From the sequence record NC_073053.1: a stretch of DNA of 41,800 bases; one strand, given 5' to 3'. The stretch comes from Escherichia phage vB_EcoD_Teewinot. The notes under the pieces are model-generated. The model saw nothing but the letters and a program-made list of their open reading frames with translations, did not search any database and was not told where the DNA came from. This document shows positions 5,009 to 38,169 of the stretch, one piece after another; the first letter of the stretch is position 1, and each line of letters begins with the position of its first letter. The position numbers and the translations under genes are program-made.

Positions 5009-5120
5009 CCCGTCCGCGGACCCCGACGAAGATTTGATGATTGACGTGAAAAATATGGAATGCGGCGCGAAGCTAAGGGCGCAAGTGCTGGAGTTGCAGA
5101 AAATAATTCGGGGGCCGTGA
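4890..5120 (+). CDS. o-spanin (Rz1-like outer-membrane lipoprotein), putative
   Basis: Signal peptide with lipobox (VLMLSAC-GSS), proline-containing mature part with a Cys; embedded out of frame in the 3' end of the preceding TM protein gene; stop codon sits in the loop of a terminator. Confidence 0.55.
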   Translation: MLRVLTVLIVVLMLSACGSSNVPLMPLTESALRPPCKFDNPSADPDEDLMIDVKNMECGAKLRAQVLELQKIIRGP

Positions 5121-7865: not shown

Positions 7866-8084
7866 ATGAATCCTGCATTACTCGCGGCTATTATCGCCGC
7901 AAATACTAAACGCCGACAGGAACCGGAACCACCGGTACCAGCGCCAGAACCGGAACCACCGGTACCAGCGCCAGAACCGGAACCACCGGTACCAGCGCCA
8001 GAACCGGAACCACCGGTACCAGCGCCAGAACCGGAACCACCGGAACCAGCGCCAGAACCGGAACCACCGGTACAGGAGGGCTAA
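7866..8084 (+). CDS. small proline/glutamate repeat protein
   Basis: ATG 7866 preceded by AGGGGG; 72 aa, N-terminal hydrophobic segment followed by about five copies of PEPEPPVPA encoded by a 27-bp tandem DNA repeat. Confidence 0.5.
   Translation: MNPALLAAIIAANTKRRQEPEPPVPAPEPEPPVPAPEPEPPVPAPEPEPPVPAPEPEPPEPAPEPEPPVQEG
7920..8076 (+). repeat. 27-bp tandem repeat (about 5.8 copies) inside a coding region
   Basis: Unit GAACCGGAACCACCGGTACCAGCGCCA repeated head-to-tail from 7920; four exact copies, a fifth with one substitution, and a partial sixth. Confidence 0.85.
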
Positions 8085-10992: not shown

Positions 10993-11135
10993 TGAAGCGG
11001 GACAGGCGGGACGTCCCGTTTTGTCCCGCCTCTGTAAAACTGCATATCTACTCACTTCCACTGCATAAACTCAAAACGGGACAAGCGGGACGTCCCGCTT
11101 TGTCCCGCCCTGTAAATGTGCATACCTATGCAGTT
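10993..11135. repeat. pair of 30-bp GGGAC palindromes with TGCATA-containing spacers
   Basis: Two near-identical imperfect palindromes CGGGACAAGCGGGACGTCCCGCTTTGTCCCGCC around 11003-11040 and 11084-11120, each centred on GGGACGTCCC, separated by CTGTAAA(N)TGCATA-type repeats. Confidence 0.7.
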
Positions 11136-11139
11136 TTAT

Positions 11140-11313
11140 TGCATAAAGTAAGCGGGACAAAAAGCGGGACAAACAAGGGGCGGGACAAAGCGGGACAGCA
11201 CCCCGTCCCCGCCAGTGCTGCCGCGGTTTTCAGCCGATCGGGACAGCGGGACAGCACCCCAGTCTTTCAGACTAGACGGGGGTCAATGGCCCCCCTCGTC
11301 TGAGACTGAATAA
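11140..11313. repeat. 174-bp GCGGGACA-array element, copy A
   Basis: Four tandem GCGGGACA units spaced about one helical turn apart, a variable centre, two more GGGACAG units, then a long imperfect hairpin (AGACGGGGG...CCCCCCTCGTCT). Near-identical copy at 37996-38169. Confidence 0.8.
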
Positions 11314-30965: not shown

Positions 30966-31132
30966 TGCTTTATCCTCACTACGGCGTCAGCGCTGCCGAT
31001 CATGGAGAAGATGCCGTCTGACAGGGCGATCTCTTCGCCGTTGTTGCGAATCTCGGCAACTGTGAAATATTCCCCCAGTAGCTTGGACCATACTTGCATT
31101 CCGACTTTTACTTCGCTGGCTTTAATACGCAT
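30962..31132 (-). CDS. small hypothetical protein (absent from the ORF track)
   Basis: 56 aa (MRIKASEVKVGMQVWSKLLGEYFTVAEIRNNGEEIALSDGIFSMIGSADAVVRIKQ) with AGGA RBS; its stop overlaps the polymerase start (ATGA). Confidence 0.35.
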   Translation of the reverse strand: MRIKASEVKVGMQVWSKLLGEYFTVAEIRNNGEEIALSDGIFSMIGSADAVVRIKQ

Positions 31133-31144
31133 TTTTCATTGTCC

Positions 31145-31171
31145 TATTAAAAAGCCCGCATTAAGCGGGCT
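31145..31171 (-). terminator. minus-strand terminator after the SSB-like gene
   Basis: On the minus strand AGCCCGC-ttaat-GCGGGCT followed by TTTTAAT. Confidence 0.55.
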
Positions 31172-31190
31172 TGAATAGTGGGCTTTGCCC

Positions 31191-31973
31191 TTAACGGCGG
31201 CGACGTTTACGTGGCGCTTCGTCTTCGTCGTCGTCCTCATCTTCGTCATCGCGTGGCTTACGACGTTTGCGAGGTTTTTCATCTTCCTCATCGTCGTCGT
31301 CATCGCGGCGCTTGGATTTCTTGGACTTGCGCGGCTTGTCATCTTCATCATCGTCATCACGACGTTTTGACTTTTTGGACTTGCGCGGTGCTTCGTCTTC
31401 GTCGTCGTTGTCCAGGTCTTCATCGGAGCAAGAAGACCCGCCACCTCCGAAGGCTTCGCCGTCTTCACGGAATCGCAGACCCAGCAAGCCAGCCCCGAGA
31501 CCCTTGCCGTTGGTATTGTTCCATGCCCAAATATCAAGGGACACGTTGCAATAACAACCGGAGTAGATCTCCTGGCCTTCAATCTCGTCGCCGTCGATGG
31601 TCAGACCTTGTTCAGTCTGCTTCTCGCCGAGTGACGTTTGAATGATCGGCTGTTTGAACGATTTGGCGTTGATGTACAACATGCCTTCGAATTCTTCGGT
31701 TACTTCGTCGCGCTCGTCACCGTCGCGAACTGCGCATTCCTTAGAATCCTGGGCGTAGTGGCGGTCCATCCACTTATCAGCATTCTTCTCGGATTTCAGC
31801 TTGTCGGTGAGCACTGCGCGCGCTGCCGCTTCCACTTTGTCCACCTGCGGATCTTCTTTATCAAGGAGAATCACTGCACGGTATGCCGGTTTTTGTCCAT
31901 CCTGTTTAGGGGTATCACGTTCCCAAATTTTCAGGAAGCATACGCGCACATTTTTCAGGTTGACTTTAGCCAT
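31191..31973 (-). CDS. ssDNA-binding protein (T7 gp2.5-like/DUF2815-like, from memory) with charged repeat tail
   Basis: 260 aa from ATG 31973 (GAGGA RBS), beginning MAKVNLKNVRVCFLKIWE; the C-terminal third is a DDDEDDKPRKSKKSKRR-type repeat ending in RKRRRR; sits between polymerase and Cas4-like nuclease genes. Confidence 0.5.
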   Translation of the reverse strand: MAKVNLKNVRVCFLKIWERDTPKQDGQKPAYRAVILLDKEDPQVDKVEAAARAVLTDKLKSEKNADKWMDRHYAQDSKECAVRDGDERDEVTEEFEGMLYINAKSFKQPIIQTSLGEKQTEQGLTIDGDEIEGQEIYSGCYCNVSLDIWAWNNTNGKGLGAGLLGLRFREDGEAFGGGGSSCSDEDLDNDDEDEAPRKSKKSKRRDDDDEDDKPRKSKKSKRRDDDDDEEDEKPRKRRKPRDDEDEDDDEDEAPRKRRRR

Positions 31974-32063: not shown

Positions 32064-32306
32064 TCAAGCATTTTCATTAAAAAGATTTCTGGTAACGTAG
32101 TCGGTAGCGTTCTCGATCCAGCTTAATGGCGGGCGGTCGATATTCTTCGCCACCCAATCGGCGGCAGCTTTGCTATAACCGTCATCCCGCCAGCGGGTCG
32201 GATGCCGAATCATCCACGCCACCATTAACACGCCATGCACACAATGCAGGATAAAGCCCAGCGCGCCGATAACAAACATCAATAATATTGCGAATACTTT
32301 ATTCAT
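32064..32306 (-). CDS. small membrane protein
   Basis: 80 aa with two hydrophobic helices (FAILLMFVIGALGFILHCV and GVLMVAWMI). Confidence 0.45.
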   Translation of the reverse strand: MNKVFAILLMFVIGALGFILHCVHGVLMVAWMIRHPTRWRDDGYSKAAADWVAKNIDRPPLSWIENATDYVTRNLFNENA

Positions 32307-33729
32307 TGCTTAAGTCCTCGTCAGTAGCTACAGACCACGCAGGGCGCGGGTCGTCGATGGGTGCTAATACCGGTTTAGCCGGTGCGCGCGTTATTATATC
32401 ACACAACTTTGCCCACACTTTCGGCTTCTCGTCCTTCAGTACCTTCTCGGCATCAGTAGGGCTGAGTAATGTTTCTTTGTACATAACATCGCGCTTGATC
32501 CGGGCCTTCGTGAAGATTTCAATCACTTCGCTTTCGTCCGCCCACTTGCGGATCCCTTCCTTACCGGCAACCATTTTGAGGCCCAGCGATTCGCCTTCGC
32601 CAGCCATAACCGCCTTGAATACCGCGGACTCTATAGCCTTGATGTGCTGGCGCATTGCGTCTAAACCTTCATATGCCTTGCGCAGTTCTGCGGCGGTCAT
32701 AGCGCCTGGGGCCGCTTCTTTCTTACCACGCTTCGCACGTCGTGCCGCTTTGCGGGCTTCGCGGGTCATATTGCGATCGTGATTGGCGCATTCTTCCTCT
32801 GTCGCAATACTCACGTCGTCGCCCAGGTCTTCGTCTGTTGCCGTTGGTGGGGTCATCGTGTCGATTGCGGCCTTAGCGCGGGCGCTACACTGATCCGCAA
32901 ATCGGCACCACTGACACGCATCAACGCTCGGTCTGAAGTCGGCACGGGTGAGTCCCTTTTTGCCGCGGGCGTACGCTTCCAGGGCGGCGATAGCACGCTT
33001 GGACGCAAACTTCGCGAATATCTCCAGGGCTTCTACCGAAATATCCCACTCCGACGCCCCGCCGCAATACGGCTGGAAGATAACCAGGCGCACGGTCGTA
33101 ATGTCGTACATAGTTTTCAGCTTGCGCAGCAGGCCGAGCGCGTACAACATAAGCTGTTTGTTTTCTTTCGCCTCGACCTTATGTCGTCCCGTCTTCAGGT
33201 CGCCAACAATCAGCATGTACGTGCCGTCGGTCTTCTTCATGACCATAACCATATCGGCAGTACCGAACGTCTTAACCAGGTTGCCGTCGATCTCGAAGCC
33301 TGAGTGAAGGACGCGGGTCAGATCGGCGCGCATCTCAAGCTGAACAAACTCCGCCACTTCGAGGAGCGGTCGCCAGTGGTCGATGTACGCGTCGCACTGT
33401 TTCACCATGTCGTCGTTGACCAGTACGCCGCCTTTCGGTGCTTTCGGGTGGGCCTTTACTGGCCCCTTGCCTTCGTTCTCGACGTAGCACCCTTTATACG
33501 TCTTCGCGGTTATCAGCTTCTCACCGGCGATAATGCGGTTTAGCACGACCTCTGATACGGTGTGCATACTCGTACCGTTAATCGCCGCTTGCCCGGATTC
33601 GTTCGGGATATCTTTTTCCACCACCAGGGCGGCAGGGCAACCCATCCATTTTTTAGCACCGGACGGCCCGAGTAATGAGTGTTCCGTGTTGCTACCGGAT
33701 TGCGTTTTACGTTTTGGTTTAATCGCCAT
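32299..33729 (-). CDS. Cas4/RecB-like PD-(D/E)xK nuclease (DUF2800-like)
   Basis: 476 aa; central GDLKTG...K region and a C-terminal cysteine cluster (C-x2-C-x5-C in SVDACQWCRFADQCS) as in Fe-S-containing Cas4-like nucleases; conserved neighbourhood with SSB-like and polymerase genes. Confidence 0.6.
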   Translation of the reverse strand: MAIKPKRKTQSGSNTEHSLLGPSGAKKWMGCPAALVVEKDIPNESGQAAINGTSMHTVSEVVLNRIIAGEKLITAKTYKGCYVENEGKGPVKAHPKAPKGGVLVNDDMVKQCDAYIDHWRPLLEVAEFVQLEMRADLTRVLHSGFEIDGNLVKTFGTADMVMVMKKTDGTYMLIVGDLKTGRHKVEAKENKQLMLYALGLLRKLKTMYDITTVRLVIFQPYCGGASEWDISVEALEIFAKFASKRAIAALEAYARGKKGLTRADFRPSVDACQWCRFADQCSARAKAAIDTMTPPTATDEDLGDDVSIATEEECANHDRNMTREARKAARRAKRGKKEAAPGAMTAAELRKAYEGLDAMRQHIKAIESAVFKAVMAGEGESLGLKMVAGKEGIRKWADESEVIEIFTKARIKRDVMYKETLLSPTDAEKVLKDEKPKVWAKLCDIITRAPAKPVLAPIDDPRPAWSVATDEDLSNE

Positions 33730-34159: not shown

Positions 34160-34190
34160 CTAAAAATAGGCCCGCAGATTAGCGGGCCGG
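34160..34190 (-). terminator. minus-strand terminator after the acidic protein gene
   Basis: On the minus strand GGCCCGC-taatct-GCGGGCC followed by TATTTTTAG. Confidence 0.5.
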
Positions 34191-34196
34191 AATACA

Positions 34197-34640
34197 TTAA
34201 TCTTCCAGTTCGAAATAGGTTTCGACGATTTCTTTTAAATCTTTGTGGAAGTCTTCAACGTCGTCGTCTTCCAGCTTGGCGATGGATTTAATTTCGAACG
34301 CTTCCAGCAGATCATCAAATTCGTCGTTCGCGTCGTCATCGTCACCACCGGCAATAATCGCGGCATACTGTTTGATTTCGTCGCGCATCTCTGCCAGCGG
34401 ATCGGCATCTTTCTTACCTTTGCCTTTCGCCGGTGCTTTTTTAGACTTAGCCGGTTTTTCGTCGTCGTCATCTTCTACGACTTCTTTTTTAGCCGGTTTT
34501 TCGTCGTCATCTTCGACAACTTCTTTTTTGGCCTTAGACGGCTTCTTGTCTTCCTGCTTACCAACGGTTTCATAATGCTTAGCGATGGTTTCCAGTGCTA
34601 CTACTCCGCGAGTGATCAGGTTTACGATTTGCTCAAACAT
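34197..34640 (-). CDS. acidic repeat protein (candidate early anti-defence/DNA-mimic protein)
   Basis: 147 aa from ATG 34640 (GGAG RBS); runs of D/E (EDDDE, EDDDDE, GGDDDDANDEFDD, EDDDVED) and a duplicated KKEVVEDDD(D)EKPAK unit; first gene after the leftward promoter, with its own terminator. Confidence 0.6.
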   Translation of the reverse strand: MFEQIVNLITRGVVALETIAKHYETVGKQEDKKPSKAKKEVVEDDDEKPAKKEVVEDDDDEKPAKSKKAPAKGKGKKDADPLAEMRDEIKQYAAIIAGGDDDDANDEFDDLLEAFEIKSIAKLEDDDVEDFHKDLKEIVETYFELED

Positions 34641-34836
34641 GGTATATCTCCGATTGGTTAAGTTTAGGTGTCGGCAGTTAACTTCGTCGGTGGCCTTAAC
34701 ATATTGCCAGGTTACGCGTTCTCCCGTTCGGGTAGTGGACCTGGTTATATAATCACGGTTGGGAATCCTGACACTTCGATCCGGCCCCTGCGTTGCCCCT
34801 CTCCAGTTTGCGTCCTGCATCCTGTCGACGGAGTGA

Positions 34837-34866
34837 ATGATAGATTGGTTGCAGGATGGGTGTCAA
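34837..34866 (-). promoter_or_regulatory. leftward sigma70-like promoter with ATTGGTTGCA in the spacer
   Basis: On the minus strand TTGACA (34866-34861), 18-bp spacer containing the motif, TATCAT (34842-34837). Confidence 0.4.
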
Positions 34867-35383: not shown

Positions 35384-37648
35384 ATGAACTTAATTAAATT
35401 CGCTGTAACACGACCCGCTAAAAAAGGCGAAAAAGCCAGGGCGGAAAACTTCCAGATGACCACCGATGAGTTTTTCGAATTTATTAATGATGCGAAAGAA
35501 ATATCCTCGGTGCATATCAACAAGACGGAAGATAAAGCGGAGTATGCGCGCCGCAAGCGTAAGGCTGATGGTATTGTGGCTTATACCCGTGACGGCTTAC
35601 GCCGCAAGACCAGTGCCGTGGACCGCTCGATCCTGTTCTTCGATATCGACCGTACCGACACCCGCACCCTGCGCCGCTGCCGTAAGGCTTTCATCGACGC
35701 GGGGCTGGAGCACGTATTTCACACCACAACCGGCGACCGCCACCCGCTGAAAGGCGGCACGCGTTGCGCTCGATTCCTGGTACTCACGGACAAGCCTGTA
35801 CCGGCTGAAGACCTGGGCCGTGTCCAGTATGCGCTATTACACCAACTGGGTCTGTCAGATGTGGACTTCGACGATTGCACGAAAGACACAAACCGCCTGA
35901 TGTACCTGCCACACCAGCAGTCTGTCGTTAAGTGCCACTACGGCAAGCGCGCCCGCGTCCGTCGTCTGCTCCGCCTGGCTGACAAGCTGGGAGTCGAGAA
36001 AGAGGAAGTACGCCGCGAACTGACCCAGGGCGATGATGGTGTGGCGGACGGTATTCTGGATTGGTGCTTCCAGGCGGGATTCGAACCGCTGTCGTCTGGT
36101 CGTGGTTATGAAGTGCCATGCCCGAACGAACACCTGCACAGCGGCGAAGGGTCCACCGCTATCTTGGTTAAGGATGGCGAGATCCGTTTCAAGTGTATGC
36201 ACACCGGCAACGAGTGTTGCTCGGAGCTGAACAGACACCAGCACCTGGCGCTACGTCTTATCGGGATCCCGGACCACCTGAACGTCGAGCCACACAACAT
36301 GTCCCGTAAGCAAATCGCCGCCATCCTCCCCGGACTGGACGACGAGGAAGTGGAATCGTGCTATGAACATATCGTTGATGCGGTCGGAGACGGCGACGAG
36401 TACGGCGTGTGTACTGATGCAGACCTGGACAACGAGCCGGTCGCACTGTTCAGTAAGCACGACCCGATCATCGAAGGCCTGGTCAACTTCAAATCGACCT
36501 GGTATCTCGCCGGTGAGTCGAACATCGGTAAATCGTTCTACGTGCTGGGGCAAATGGGTGCGGTTGCCGCGGGGATTCCGTTCGGCGGTGCGAAGGTCGT
36601 CCAGTCCCATTGCTTCTATTTCGACGCGGAAGGTGGCGAAGCCTCCAACCAGCGTAAGGAAGCATTGCAGATCAAATACGAGCACGACCTCGACAAGCTG
36701 CACATTATCGATCTGCAATCACGCGGCTGGGATATCACCAGCAAATCCGGCTTGCGTGAAGTTATCAGCTTCATCAACCGCACCGCTAACGGCGAACCGG
36801 TTGGCCTGGTGGCGTTCGACTCACTCAACCAGACGGTTGCGCTGCGGTCCGCCGATGCTAAACCGTTCGACGAGAACAACGCCAGCGATATGGGTGAAGT
36901 GGTCAAAGCGCTGAAGGCCATCGCGGAAAATACAGGCGGCAGTGCTGGCGTCATCCACCACCCGGCGAAGGGTGCAAACGGCAGCAGATCCCCCCGCGGG
37001 TCCGGCGCGCTGCATGGTGCTGTAGATTCCGCGTTCTTCCTGGAGCAACCGGACGACAATCAGCCCGGACAACTTAACCTGTATCACGAGAAGGCACGTA
37101 ACGGCATCAAGCAAGCGCCGCGCGGCTTCGTCCTGCTCAAGTGCAAGGTTAAGGTGGATCTCCGCAAGTCCGAGGCGTTCGAGGCGCACCAGTCCACCAG
37201 CACCGGGCCAGACTTCGGCGACGTGGTTGCCGGATGGGACGTCAAGCCGATTGCCTCCACGCCACGCGACGAGACTCTCTACCTCGTACCGGTCGCCCTG
37301 GCACCGTTCGCTATAGAACAGGCGAAGGCGGCTGGCAAGGCCGCGGTTAAGGACGAGAATGCCGCAGGACCGCGCAACGAAAAAGAGAAAGTGCTTTATG
37401 CGGCACTGGAAAAACTGATGGAAGATAACCCGGACCATACCGGATTCAGCAAATCGGCAATTGTCCGCCAGGCGGGATTGGCAAAAGGTGGAACATCTAC
37501 GAAGGCAATAGACGATATGGTTGAGCGCGGAGTGTTAGGTTTTTATACCGATCCGCACACCGGGGCCATCTATGGGTCGTCGAATATAGTCATCAAAACG
37601 AATATACCCATCACGCTTTCTGCGACCGATGACGACCTGAAAGATTAA
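35384..37648 (+). CDS. primase-helicase (AEP-type primase domain plus P-loop ATPase)
   Basis: 754 aa; N-terminal SILFFDIDRTD (hhhDhD primase-polymerase motif) and DDCTKDTNRLMYLP, a Cys/His zinc-binding segment, then Walker A GESNIGKS. Confidence 0.7.
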   Translation: MNLIKFAVTRPAKKGEKARAENFQMTTDEFFEFINDAKEISSVHINKTEDKAEYARRKRKADGIVAYTRDGLRRKTSAVDRSILFFDIDRTDTRTLRRCRKAFIDAGLEHVFHTTTGDRHPLKGGTRCARFLVLTDKPVPAEDLGRVQYALLHQLGLSDVDFDDCTKDTNRLMYLPHQQSVVKCHYGKRARVRRLLRLADKLGVEKEEVRRELTQGDDGVADGILDWCFQAGFEPLSSGRGYEVPCPNEHLHSGEGSTAILVKDGEIRFKCMHTGNECCSELNRHQHLALRLIGIPDHLNVEPHNMSRKQIAAILPGLDDEEVESCYEHIVDAVGDGDEYGVCTDADLDNEPVALFSKHDPIIEGLVNFKSTWYLAGESNIGKSFYVLGQMGAVAAGIPFGGAKVVQSHCFYFDAEGGEASNQRKEALQIKYEHDLDKLHIIDLQSRGWDITSKSGLREVISFINRTANGEPVGLVAFDSLNQTVALRSADAKPFDENNASDMGEVVKALKAIAENTGGSAGVIHHPAKGANGSRSPRGSGALHGAVDSAFFLEQPDDNQPGQLNLYHEKARNGIKQAPRGFVLLKCKVKVDLRKSEAFEAHQSTSTGPDFGDVVAGWDVKPIASTPRDETLYLVPVALAPFAIEQAKAAGKAAVKDENAAGPRNEKEKVLYAALEKLMEDNPDHTGFSKSAIVRQAGLAKGGTSTKAIDDMVERGVLGFYTDPHTGAIYGSSNIVIKTNIPITLSATDDDLKD

Positions 37649-37960
37649 ATTTTGCGCGCATTGGGAATTCCCATATCGCTAAAGATTAAATTTTGCGCGC
37701 ATTGGTTGCCATTTTGGGAATTCCCATATCGCTAAAGATTAAATTTTGCGCGCATTGGTTGCCGATATGGGAATTCCCATATCGCTAAAGATTAAATTTT
37801 GCGCGCATTGGTTGCCATTTTGGGAATTCCCATATCGCTAAAGATTAAATTTTGCGCGTATTGGTTGCCATTTTGGGAATTCCCATATCGCTAAAGATTA
37901 AATTTTGCGCGTATTGGTTGCCATTTTGGGTGTTTTTAACTGGTCGTATTGGTTGCCGTG
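37640..37960. repeat. iteron array, about six tandem 53-bp repeats (candidate origin of replication)
   Basis: Unit AAAGATTAAATTTTGCGCGCATTGGTTGCCATTTTGGGAATTCCCATATCGCT at 37681, 37734, 37787, 37840, a 41-bp first copy at 37640 (12-bp deletion) and a degenerate sixth; each has the palindrome TGGGAATTCCCA, extended to GATATGGGAATTCCCATATC in the third copy. Starts in the last codons of the primase-helicase gene. Confidence 0.75.
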
Positions 37961-37995: not shown

Positions 37996-38169
37996 TGCAT
38001 AAAGTAAGCGGGACAAAAAGCGGGACAAACAAGGGGCGGGACAAAGCGGGACAGCACCCCCGTCCCGCCCCGGATGGCGCGGCTTTCAGAGGAGCGGGAC
38101 AGCGGGACAGCACCCCAGTCTTTCAGACTAGACGGGGGTCAGTGGCCCCCCTCGTCTGAGACTGAATAA
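37996..38169. repeat. 174-bp GCGGGACA-array element, copy B
   Basis: Same length as copy A (11140-11313); identical over the first 60-odd bp and the last 70-odd bp except one A/G difference, with a diverged roughly 40-bp centre. Confidence 0.8.

Follow-up and report, generated by a model that had tools for sequence, protein, structure and literature searches.

The question raised by this locus is why the gene encoding an SSB (single-stranded DNA-binding protein) should end in a long tail of alternating acidic and basic runs, and whether this tail is connected with an acidic protein that is encoded nearby and is written in a similar style. The window analysed here is the whole 41,800-nucleotide stretch from Escherichia phage vB_EcoD_Teewinot (NC_073053.1), the relevant features of which are collected in Table 1. 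The gene product, described as 'SSB-like' in a sequence-only reading of this DNA, is established as a phage SSB of the T7 gp2.5/Enc34 type: it matches PF10991 (Enc34_ssDNA-bd, formerly DUF2815) over residues 10–200 (E = 1.6e-31), scoring 109.8 bits where the cutoff lies at 26, it matches phrog_112 (Gp2.5-like SSB and annealing protein) at 1.5e-57, and its sequence matches PDB entries 4jg2, 4klk and 5odj with E values of about 1e-11, Enc34 ORF6 being among these solved DUF2815 structures. In an AlphaFold2 model built from a 57-homologue alignment, an OB domain spanning residues 9–182 is predicted, with high confidence over residues 9–180 (pLDDT 89–97 per 10-residue block), and a Foldseek search with this model retrieved 4klk (1.9e-12), Enc34 5odl (7e-12) and T7 gp2.5 1je5 (1.6e-6). 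No match to the bacterial SSB family PF00436 was obtained at E <= 0.01, and Foldseek comparison with bacterial SSBs gave E > 1. In the alignment with Enc34, W156 corresponds to the DNA-stacking Trp150 and N160 corresponds to Asn154, while the position of Tyr156 is occupied by Asn162. Stacking on the 5' bases is the task of an aromatic residue with which strand beta-4 begins, Trp150 in Enc34 and Tyr158 in T7 (PMC5686142). Within the PF10991/T7-type SSBs, a preference for ssDNA and strand annealing have been demonstrated biochemically for Enc34 ORF6 and T7 gp2.5 only.

Over the 1.1 kb that surrounds the SSB tail, the window is 96–98% identical to some 150 genomes of Escherichia phages in the genus Dhillonvirus, among them HK578, SSL-2009a, mckay, bob and SECphi18, and the SSB gene itself shares 97.7% DNA identity with those of mckay and bob. 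The orthologues in SECphi4, SECphi6 and SECphi18, the last of which falls within these Dhillonvirus records, are predicted SSBs, and their mutants escape Retron-Eco8. Along the (−) strand, in the 5'->3' direction of the transcript, the order is acidic protein, small ORF, exonuclease, small ORF, SSB, small ORF and polymerase, which includes the duf2800-gp2.5-polA module that has already been reported (PMC8093625), and the helicase-primase gene is divergent from these replication genes. Directly 3' of the SSB stop codon lies a hairpin which reads AAGCCCGC-TTAAT-GCGGGCTT on the (−) strand and is followed by TTTAA; it was not flagged by a consensus terminator scan, and a 'terminator' is annotated beneath the match to this region in LR999870.1.

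Table 1. Features of the window that bear on the SSB tail.
Feature	Position	Strand	Basis or remark
SSB, T7 gp2.5/Enc34 ORF6 type (PF10991, DUF2815), 267 aa	31191..31994	−	Pfam, PHROG and PDB matches
OB-fold ssDNA-binding domain, SSB residues 9–182	31449..31970	−	AlphaFold2 and Foldseek
Proximal tail motif S190-D-E-D-L-D-N-D197 of the SSB	31404..31427	−	Conservation in 57 homologues; common to enzymes
Mixed-charge part of the SSB tail, from residue 198	31194..31403	−	Charge analysis, Tandem Repeats Finder, pLDDT, dN/dS
Basic blocks of the SSB tail, between acidic ones	31359-31391, 31305-31337, 31251-31277, 31194-31217	−	
Terminator-like G+C-rich hairpin and T run, directly 3' of the SSB stop	31150..31172	−	Sequence inspection
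DUF2800 PD-(D/E)XK exonuclease, 476 aa	32299..33729	−	PF10926 (6e-67), phrog_69
Exonuclease C-terminal ATDEDLSNE	32302-32328	−	Six-frame motif scan
Exonuclease internal-linker copy TATDEDLGDD	D-E-D-L at 32824-32835	−	Six-frame motif scan
Helicase-primase, 754 aa, AAA_25	35384..37648	+	C-terminal SATDDDLKD at 37619-37645
Acidic protein (protein X), 147 aa, phrog_3127	34197..34640	−	PHROG match, synteny, hhalign
Family A DNA polymerase, 763 aa	28674..30965	−	PF00476 (3.6e-16); third duf2800-gp2.5-polA member

The 81 residues from 187 to 267 (nt 31194–31436) begin SSCSDEDLDNDDEDE and continue as APRKSKKSKRR-DDDDEDD-KPRKSKKSKRR-DDDDDEEDE-KPRKRRKPR-DDEDEDDDEDE-APRKRRRR, so that the alternating tail with KPRKSKKSKRR blocks and an RKRRRR end that had been described from the sequence is confirmed. 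It contains 36 D/E and 28 K/R residues (net charge −8) arranged as four acid/base modules, and its charge segregation is approximately 0.61 of the possible maximum (delta ratio); when the residues were shuffled 5000 times, no shuffle reached the observed value, which lies at z = 10. The tandem repeats were also recovered at the DNA level by Tandem Repeats Finder, as a row at 31283–31408 (period 54, 2.3 copies, 73% matches, score 147) and short-period rows at 31217–31251 and 31339–31359, and the two copies of PRKSKKSKRR differ at six of 30 nucleotides, every change being synonymous. In the AlphaFold2 model, residues 183–267 have pLDDT values of 44–61 and are without secondary structure, and the tail is therefore predicted to be disordered; it is left undocked from the OB domain, which is uninformative about partners. 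The tail is interpreted as a disordered two-part appendage, with a docking peptide followed by a polyampholyte extension.

To what extent this tail departs from those of its family was assessed using a survey that was free of tail bias because the OB domain alone served as the query, against 1.84 billion representatives, which gave 148 usable sequences. As had been supposed, typical tails are acidic: 132 of the 148 representatives carry an ordinary tail with medians of 27 residues, nine acidic residues, one basic residue and a net charge of −8, the last residue of which is mostly F, A, I, L or V. Tails with at least six K/R residues were found in 16 of the 148, including all eight representatives nearest to the window. 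The window's SSB lacks the short, purely acidic, hydrophobic-ended tail that is the norm in PF10991, and it retains the net charge of −8 and the proximal acidic motif of ordinary tails. In a neighbour-joining tree the window falls in one clade of eight representatives, all of them mixed-tailed, and six further mixed lineages are isolated, while the distant mixed-tail sequences P0115–P0120 adjoin ordinary-tail representatives; from this scatter and the placement of P0115–P0120 it follows that mixed-charge tails arose at least three times.

A word-indexed search yielded 120 homologue clusters, nearly all with tails of acid/base blocks, 114 of which were usable. Far from being absent from all homologues, the mixed tail was thus seen in more than 110 clusters and at least five phage genera. 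The 114 tails vary from 31 to 170 residues and contain 1–9 basic blocks, and the number of acidic residues follows the number of basic residues as 1.09 x basic + 6.3 (r = 0.92) with a median net charge of −8, equal to that of ordinary tails, which indicates that modules have been gained as near-neutral pairs above a constant acidic excess. Of the 319 basic blocks in these homologues, 285 open with x-P-[KR]. In 72 of the 114 the final six residues carry a net basic charge, and in 33 the tip is acidic instead, relatives ending for example in NYEDDEE or NRDED instead of poly-Arg. Among the tails of Dhillonvirus there are two, three or four modules, with whole-module insertions and deletions that are always in frame, and the end DEDEAPRKRRRR is invariant; since the number of modules varies within the genus, the exact length of the tail is not required. 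Among 12 Dhillonvirus sequences dN/dS is 0.074 for the tail versus 0.049 for the OB domain. Conservation of the tail is established by these comparisons, as is purifying selection, which is read from the sequences.

A trivial explanation would be that the tail is an artefact of annotation or frame and that the true protein ends near the Gly linker. This could be prompted by the entries P0005 (phage vB_EcoS-22664B1) and P0008, in which the tail is in a different frame; however, both are single-member clusters, all 12 Dhillonvirus loci and more than 110 clusters keep the frame of the tail open and conserved, its indels are multiples of three and its dN/dS is low, and such an artefact is extremely improbable. 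Alternatively, the repeats may be a tolerated low-complexity stretch, expanded by replication slippage, that serves as an inert spacer whose particular sequence is unimportant, the OB domain and the proximal DEDL carrying out all function. The tail is indeed predicted to be disordered, the number of modules varies from two to four among phages whose OB domains share more than 90% identity, and in P0115 (...DDDDDLV) and P0193 (...SDLVD) the repeats are preceded by the proximal motif and followed by a canonical tip that has been retained, an arrangement that would suit a spacer. An inert spacer would nevertheless hardly be expected to show a dN/dS at aligned positions that is almost down to the level of the folded domain, copies of PRKSKKSKRR that differ at synonymous sites only, or an acid/base balance and an x-Pro-basic boundary that are maintained in 114 homologues; moreover, the style has originated repeatedly and the same blocks co-occur in protein X, and the spacer explanation is regarded as unlikely, although it retains some weight.

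The proximal motif is the part of the tail that the SSB has in common with other proteins. Across the alignment of 57 homologues, conservation of D193, L194 and D197 reaches at least 90%, a level comparable with that of core residues. A search of all six frames of the window found five occurrences of D[DE]DL, four of which are in replication proteins and are each preceded by Ser or Thr: CSDEDLDND in the SSB, ATDEDLSNE directly before the stop codon and TATDEDLGDD internally in the exonuclease, and SATDDDLKD directly before the stop codon in the helicase-primase. The fifth, D-E-D-L at 5025–5036 (+), has its counterpart in a region of SETP3 that is annotated with Rz-like spanin genes, and it was discarded as a replication motif for this reason. 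From composition, the probability that [ST]D[DE]DL should fall by chance within the final nine residues was calculated as 1.5e-5 and 3e-5 in the two enzymes, with the motif patterns having been composed after the sequences had been seen. The sharing of the peptide also occurs in Jerseyvirus SETP3, Kagunavirus K1G, Eiauvirus eiAU-183 and phiEap-2, and is conserved over five genera. The C-terminal motif of the exonuclease is present in 117 of the 120 homologue clusters, and the helicase-primase ends, as judged by eye, in an acidic residue, D-L and 1–5 further residues in nearly all 120 (103 by a strict pattern). A literature search found no report of exonuclease or helicase-primase ends that copy an SSB tail peptide, and a 2026 preprint on DUF2800 as a retron trigger mentions just a disordered C-terminal region. 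The suggestion that the tail is a partner-recruitment module is only partly supported, the piece that is common to the partner proteins being the proximal S-D-E-D-L and not the repeats.

The presence of one peptide on several proteins implies a single receptor. In T7, both gp2.5 and gp4 bind the polymerase gp5 at basic patches through their acidic tails (PMC12593628), and the gp2.5 tail also competes for the DNA cleft of its own protein, while in crystals of Enc34 the tail occupies the groove of a neighbouring molecule. By analogy with these systems, the hub for the shared peptide would be the polymerase and/or the core of the SSB; possible candidates are the polymerase, the SSB cleft and a host protein.

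The same relationship between the SSB and the exonuclease was found in phages with ordinary tails, sampled as 80 IMG/VR loci together with APSE-7, a Vibrio phage and Bacillus phage Wes44. In these phages the SSB tail has the form ...S-E-D-[DE]-F-D-D-[ILV]-(5–7 residues)-D-D-L-[VAI]-stop and the exonuclease encoded at the same loci ends in ...A-D-[DE]-F-x-D-V-(5–8 residues)-[DE]-D-L-[VAI]-stop, so that both motifs of the SSB tail are copied at the C-terminus of the exonuclease. At the central hydrophobic position the SSB and the exonuclease agree with each other, both having Phe in ordinary-tail phages and both having Leu in the window's clade. The tips correspond locus by locus, the SSB and exonuclease tips being AESLI and AESLI in L076, GEFV and AEFI in L088, EGLV and EGLV in L093, DDLA and DDLA in L038, and EELA and DELA in L027. 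For 66 non-redundant loci, the BLOSUM score of the last four residues was 5.5 for true pairs versus 2.1 +/- 0.55 for permuted pairs, and the identity over the last three residues was 1.49 versus 0.93 (z = 6.3 and 7.7, respectively); no permuted pairing out of 10,000 reached the observed values. These data establish that the motifs are shared and that they co-vary. Gene conversion as the source of the matching tips was ruled out by differing codons, the SSB and exonuclease of L076 sharing one of five, and because identical tips use different codons their likeness must be maintained by selection at the protein level. The same tail or tip is also borne by small HTH regulators in some lineages (L061/L074/L077, L100 and L104).

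Many ordinary DUF2815 tails end in DDIPF, DDDLPF or DNDIPF, and tails of the DDIPF type resemble the tip of E. coli SSB. This bacterial-SSB-like ending would be expected if the D-L peptides and the tail targeted a host protein, mimicking the C-terminus of the host SSB in order to recruit or block SSB-interacting enzymes. However, the tips vary from phage to phage, in step with the exonuclease tip of the same phage, which fits a co-evolving phage partner better than a conserved pocket of the host, and the window's SSB, unlike the bacterial SSBs of the DDDIPF type, is without any hydrophobic tip; host mimicry is accordingly considered to be very unlikely.

The second connection that had been drawn from the sequence, that the SSB tail is related to the acidic protein, concerns the protein which is here termed protein X. 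Its true start is most likely to be the ATG at 34640, which has a GGAG 8 nt upstream and is preferred because the PHROG match spans just residues 61–207 of the long ORF. Protein X consists of an N-terminal helix, a K/P/D/E linker with two DDDEKPAK blocks and a small acidic helical C-terminal domain. As had been noted, the protein repeats the D-rich, KP-K-K style of the SSB tail, with KKEVVEDDDEKPA as acid and K-P-x-K blocks occurring twice (Tandem Repeats Finder 34447–34533, period 39). A tblastn search with the acidic protein gave matches in Dhillonvirus records only, and the resulting supposition that it is not co-distributed with mixed tails was dropped after orthologues had been recognized by synteny in other genera, namely SETP3 (gp42, BLASTP 3e-7), K1G, eiAU and phiEap-2. 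These share the N-terminal helix (MFEQIVNLI / MLEQFIKLF ...) and the acidic helical C-terminal domain, and the hallmark of the family is a helix beginning M-x-[LF]-E-... and a variable linker, encoded upstream of duf2800. A chain of hhalign comparisons through intermediates from mixed-tail loci leads to the ORF that precedes duf2800 at ordinary-tail loci (87% and 96.8%), whereas direct comparison of main-clade X with ordinary-locus X is weak (7% over the full length and 46% on the C-termini). From the orthologues and this chain, protein X is a fourth conserved member of the replication module. No Pfam family was found for protein X or its relatives, and the match of the acidic protein to BUD22 (17.4 bits versus a threshold of 37 bits) is attributable to alike composition.

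Homology between the SSB tail and protein X was rejected. BLASTP aligns them with E = 2e-4 over 37 residues that are low-complexity blocks only, the repeat DNAs are 63% identical without sign of a shared origin, and none of the hallmark domains of the protein X family, which is a separate conserved family, is present in the SSB tail. What stood of the proposed relationship is a co-occurrence of style. The block pattern [DE][DE]-x-P-[KRAST]-[KR]-(0-2)-[KR], which was defined after the fact, occurs four times in the SSB tail, twice in protein X and nowhere else in the window; in SETP3, where the complete genome was covered, it is confined to the SSB and to gp42, in the K1G and phiEap-2 stretches that were fetched it is confined to the SSB and protein X, and in the eiAU stretch it is found in protein X only, the SSB blocks there (EPRSVSRRR) being outside the pattern. 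In L100, L102, L104 and L105, which carry mixed tails and belong to a separate part of the SSB tree, blocks are also present in X, while the contigs of P0138 and P0193 end too early to include protein X. Overall, acid-x-Pro-basic blocks are present in the X linker of nine of nine mixed-tail phages versus none of 16 ordinary-tail phages, a contrast that covers only about two or three independent lineages, and the sequences are thus suggestive of a linker style in protein X that tracks the tail style of the SSB.

These observations bear on a further explanation, in which the polarity is inverted and the basic blocks, chiefly the terminal APRKRRRR, dock on an acidic phage protein such as the C-terminal domain of X. 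The invariance of the terminal sequence in the genus, the net basic last six residues in the majority of the homologues and the encoding of a strongly acidic protein X within this module in every mixed-tail genus examined would fit such docking; against it, a substantial minority of the homologues have an acidic tip instead, and homologues of protein X are present in ordinary-tail phages too, so a basic SSB tip is not required. This explanation appears doubtful. A broader reading is that two sets of motifs join the replication and recombination module: D-L (or F...D-L-V) peptides that dock on a hub, borne by the SSB, the exonuclease, the helicase-primase and the HTH regulators of some lineages, and acid/x-Pro-basic blocks of the SSB tail and protein X that would drive a condensate-like heterotypic electrostatic co-assembly on ssDNA, concentrating the motif-bearing enzymes at intermediates. 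It is entertained as a tentative and rather improbable extension.

The explanation towards which we lean, with slightly more than even confidence, is that the protein is a replication/recombination SSB which combines a shared docking peptide with multivalent acid/base modules. Residues 190–197 would represent the family-wide tail motif, with Leu replacing the usual Phe, and since the same peptide stands at the ends of the exonuclease and the helicase-primase, all three proteins could plug into one common site, which by analogy with T7 may be a basic patch of the polymerase and/or the SSB's own ssDNA cleft. Residues 198–267 would be lineage-specific modules that take the place of the short, acidic, hydrophobic-ended tip and were probably born by tandem duplication of an 18-residue unit. 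Because each module is nearly charge-neutral the tail stays at a net charge of about −8, and with the net charge preserved the role of the tail in ssDNA mimicry and selectivity can persist. The modules would most likely act as a blocky polyampholyte linker, in which the x-Pro-Arg/Lys blocks may bind weakly and multivalently to DNA and to the acidic blocks of their own tail, of neighbouring SSB tails and of the protein X linker, and such binding might tune cooperativity, strand annealing and the co-assembly of replication and recombination proteins. The basic blocks could equally, being placed beside an acidic tail that mimics ssDNA, weaken the ssDNA selectivity that the Enc34 tail gives. The variable number of modules within the genus and the relatives with an acidic tip also speak against this explanation.

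Comparison with known systems places this arrangement more precisely. Enc34 ORF6 (Enterobacter/Hafnia phage Enc34; PDB 5odj/5odl) shares with the window's SSB the family, the fold, the stacking Trp and a disordered C-terminal tail that opens with an acidic motif around a hydrophobic residue; however, Enc34 has a short tail with acidic charge only (D/E at 16 of its last 29 positions, ending in WDEDEV), whereas that of the window's SSB has 81 residues, 28 of them K/R in four blocks, and a poly-Arg end. T7 gp2.5, which is about 12% identical to the window's SSB, is likewise an OB-fold SSB of the annealing type with a disordered tail, which contacts the replisome, and the binding of the acidic tail of the T7 helicase-primase to the polymerase parallels the sharing of the motif between the SSB and the helicase-primase of the window. 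The T7 gp2.5 tail is nevertheless purely acidic with a terminal Phe, while the shared peptide is internal in the window's SSB, and in the window a PD-(D/E)XK exonuclease also bears the peptide, for which no T7 case is known. E. coli SSB similarly consists of an OB domain, a disordered linker and a docking peptide, with the length and composition of the linker tuning cooperativity; its OB domain belongs to another family, its linker is Gly/Gln/Pro-rich rather than highly charged, and the order is reversed in the window's SSB, where the docking peptide precedes the repeats. In T4 gp32 a basic N-terminal LAST motif (KRKST), which is responsible for cooperativity, is combined with an acidic C-terminal domain that binds partners; gp32 is unrelated in sequence, and its two elements are at opposite ends, whereas those of the window's SSB are interleaved in one tail. 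The x-Pro-basic blocks resemble DNA-contacting elements of the H1/SPKK type and the basic cooperativity motif of T4 gp32, resemblances that serve as leads only. Alternating acidic and x-Pro-Lys/Arg blocks also occur, without homology, in eukaryotic mixed-charge regions (the nucleolin N-terminus, Nopp140 and BUD22-like proteins) and in H1/SPKK repeats. A literature search for a mixed-charge or polyampholyte SSB tail found nothing relevant.

In conclusion, SSB tails organise replisomes, and by the accepted rule they are acidic and end in a hydrophobic tip; a large and abundant group of coliphage and Salmonella-phage SSBs departs from this rule in a manner that is conserved and selected. This group includes the SECphi phages of defence-system work, in which the SSB triggers Retron-Eco8, and the natural variants with two, three and four modules provide a ready allelic series. 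The tail mimicry by the exonuclease and the helicase-primase is a by-product of more value than the SSB tail itself, and these co-varying tail copies offer a concrete wiring diagram, open to testing, of the duf2800-gp2.5-polA module, which is very widespread but uncharacterised.

A second copy of the docking peptide, PPTATDEDLGDDVS, is located inside the DUF2800 exonuclease, in a linker with the nuclease core on one side and the C-terminal region on the other. In the lineage of the related locus L108, the SSB tail is built from D-rich and RGSRSRSR repeats and the exonuclease C-terminus past the shared KFEDLS motif is likewise basic (SGRRKEDQSLRMRRSM), which hints that exonuclease tails are able to adopt a mixed-charge style when the SSB tail does. 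The coordinates of these and the other features are collected in the table.

Features in the window and in related loci
Feature	Location	Strand	Detail
27-bp repeat unit	window 7920-8073		5.7 copies, 98% identity
GCGGGAC(A) repeat arrays (two)	window 10998-11285 and 37996-38141		about 27 kb apart
Alternative SSB frame	window 31136-31582	-	see P0005 and P0008 below
GC-rich hairpin and T run	window 31150-31172	-	past the SSB stop codon, ahead of the small ORF that starts at 31132
Internal docking-peptide copy	window 32824-32835	-	within the exonuclease gene
Terminator-like hairpin	window 34169-34188	-	directly after the acidic protein
Sigma-70-like promoter	window 34837-34866	-	upstream of the acidic protein; near-consensus TTGACA-18-TATCAT, 11/12
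53-bp direct repeats	window 37661-37930		five near-perfect, 96% matches; directly 3' of the helicase-primase gene
Exonuclease	L108 3-1400
SSB	L108 1404-2222
85-aa HTH_3/HTH_31 protein	L061, L074, L077		end ...QFASEDDFEDLTQEENAE; same tail/tip as the phage's SSB
Small putative regulator	L100 3728-4075		end ...CDWDDLI vs SSB ...DDDDDLV
Small putative regulator	L104 1090-1395	-	end ...GDDKY vs SSB ...DDDEY

Two database versions of the SSB, P0005 (from Escherichia phage vB_EcoS-22664B1) and P0008, each the only member of its cluster, shift frame within or just past the Gly linker and terminate in ...GKAHYSSPL.AGFL.GQ. Sequencing errors in the homopolymer and repeat DNA, or frameshift mutations there, probably account for both. 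At the contig end of another related locus, L011 (IMG/VR contig 3300045988_003101), the SSB frame continues into ...AVSYTHLRAHET, which we take to resemble the translation of a sequencing adapter, and the contig end would then be adapter contamination. The SSB of MG065648.1 (Campylobacter phage A144) and the acidic protein of OQ221563.1 (Acinetobacter phage NJ01) are 93-98% identical to those of this Dhillonvirus despite their non-Escherichia host labels, and these are likely to be mislabelled records or to derive from a contaminated phage stock.

Downstream of the SSB gene, the GC-rich hairpin could attenuate transcription ahead of the polymerase gene; LR999870.1 carries a terminator annotation at the corresponding position. 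The acidic protein is preceded by the promoter and followed by the terminator-like hairpin, and the longer version of its ORF, which begins at 34820, is unlikely to be translated.

The 53-bp unit includes the 3' end of the helicase-primase gene, AAAGATTAAATTTTGCGCGCATTGG, and a partial first copy (approximately 37637-37660) overlaps the last codons and the stop codon of this gene. The repeats look like an iteron array, which would make them a candidate replication origin. The two GCGGGAC(A) arrays, which are approximately 90% identical across 121 bp (109/121) and the first of which additionally holds 2.1 copies of a 79-bp unit, may be regulatory or protein-binding sites. The 27-bp unit would encode a nine-residue repeat, which is GSGSGAGTG, TGTTGTSAR or PEPEPPVPA depending on the frame.

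In related modules, small putative DNA-binding regulators carry a C-terminal tail or tip matching the SSB of their own phage; the HTH assignment was checked by Pfam for the 85-aa protein only. Since these putative regulators end like the SSB of their own phage, the shared-peptide network may extend to transcription regulators.
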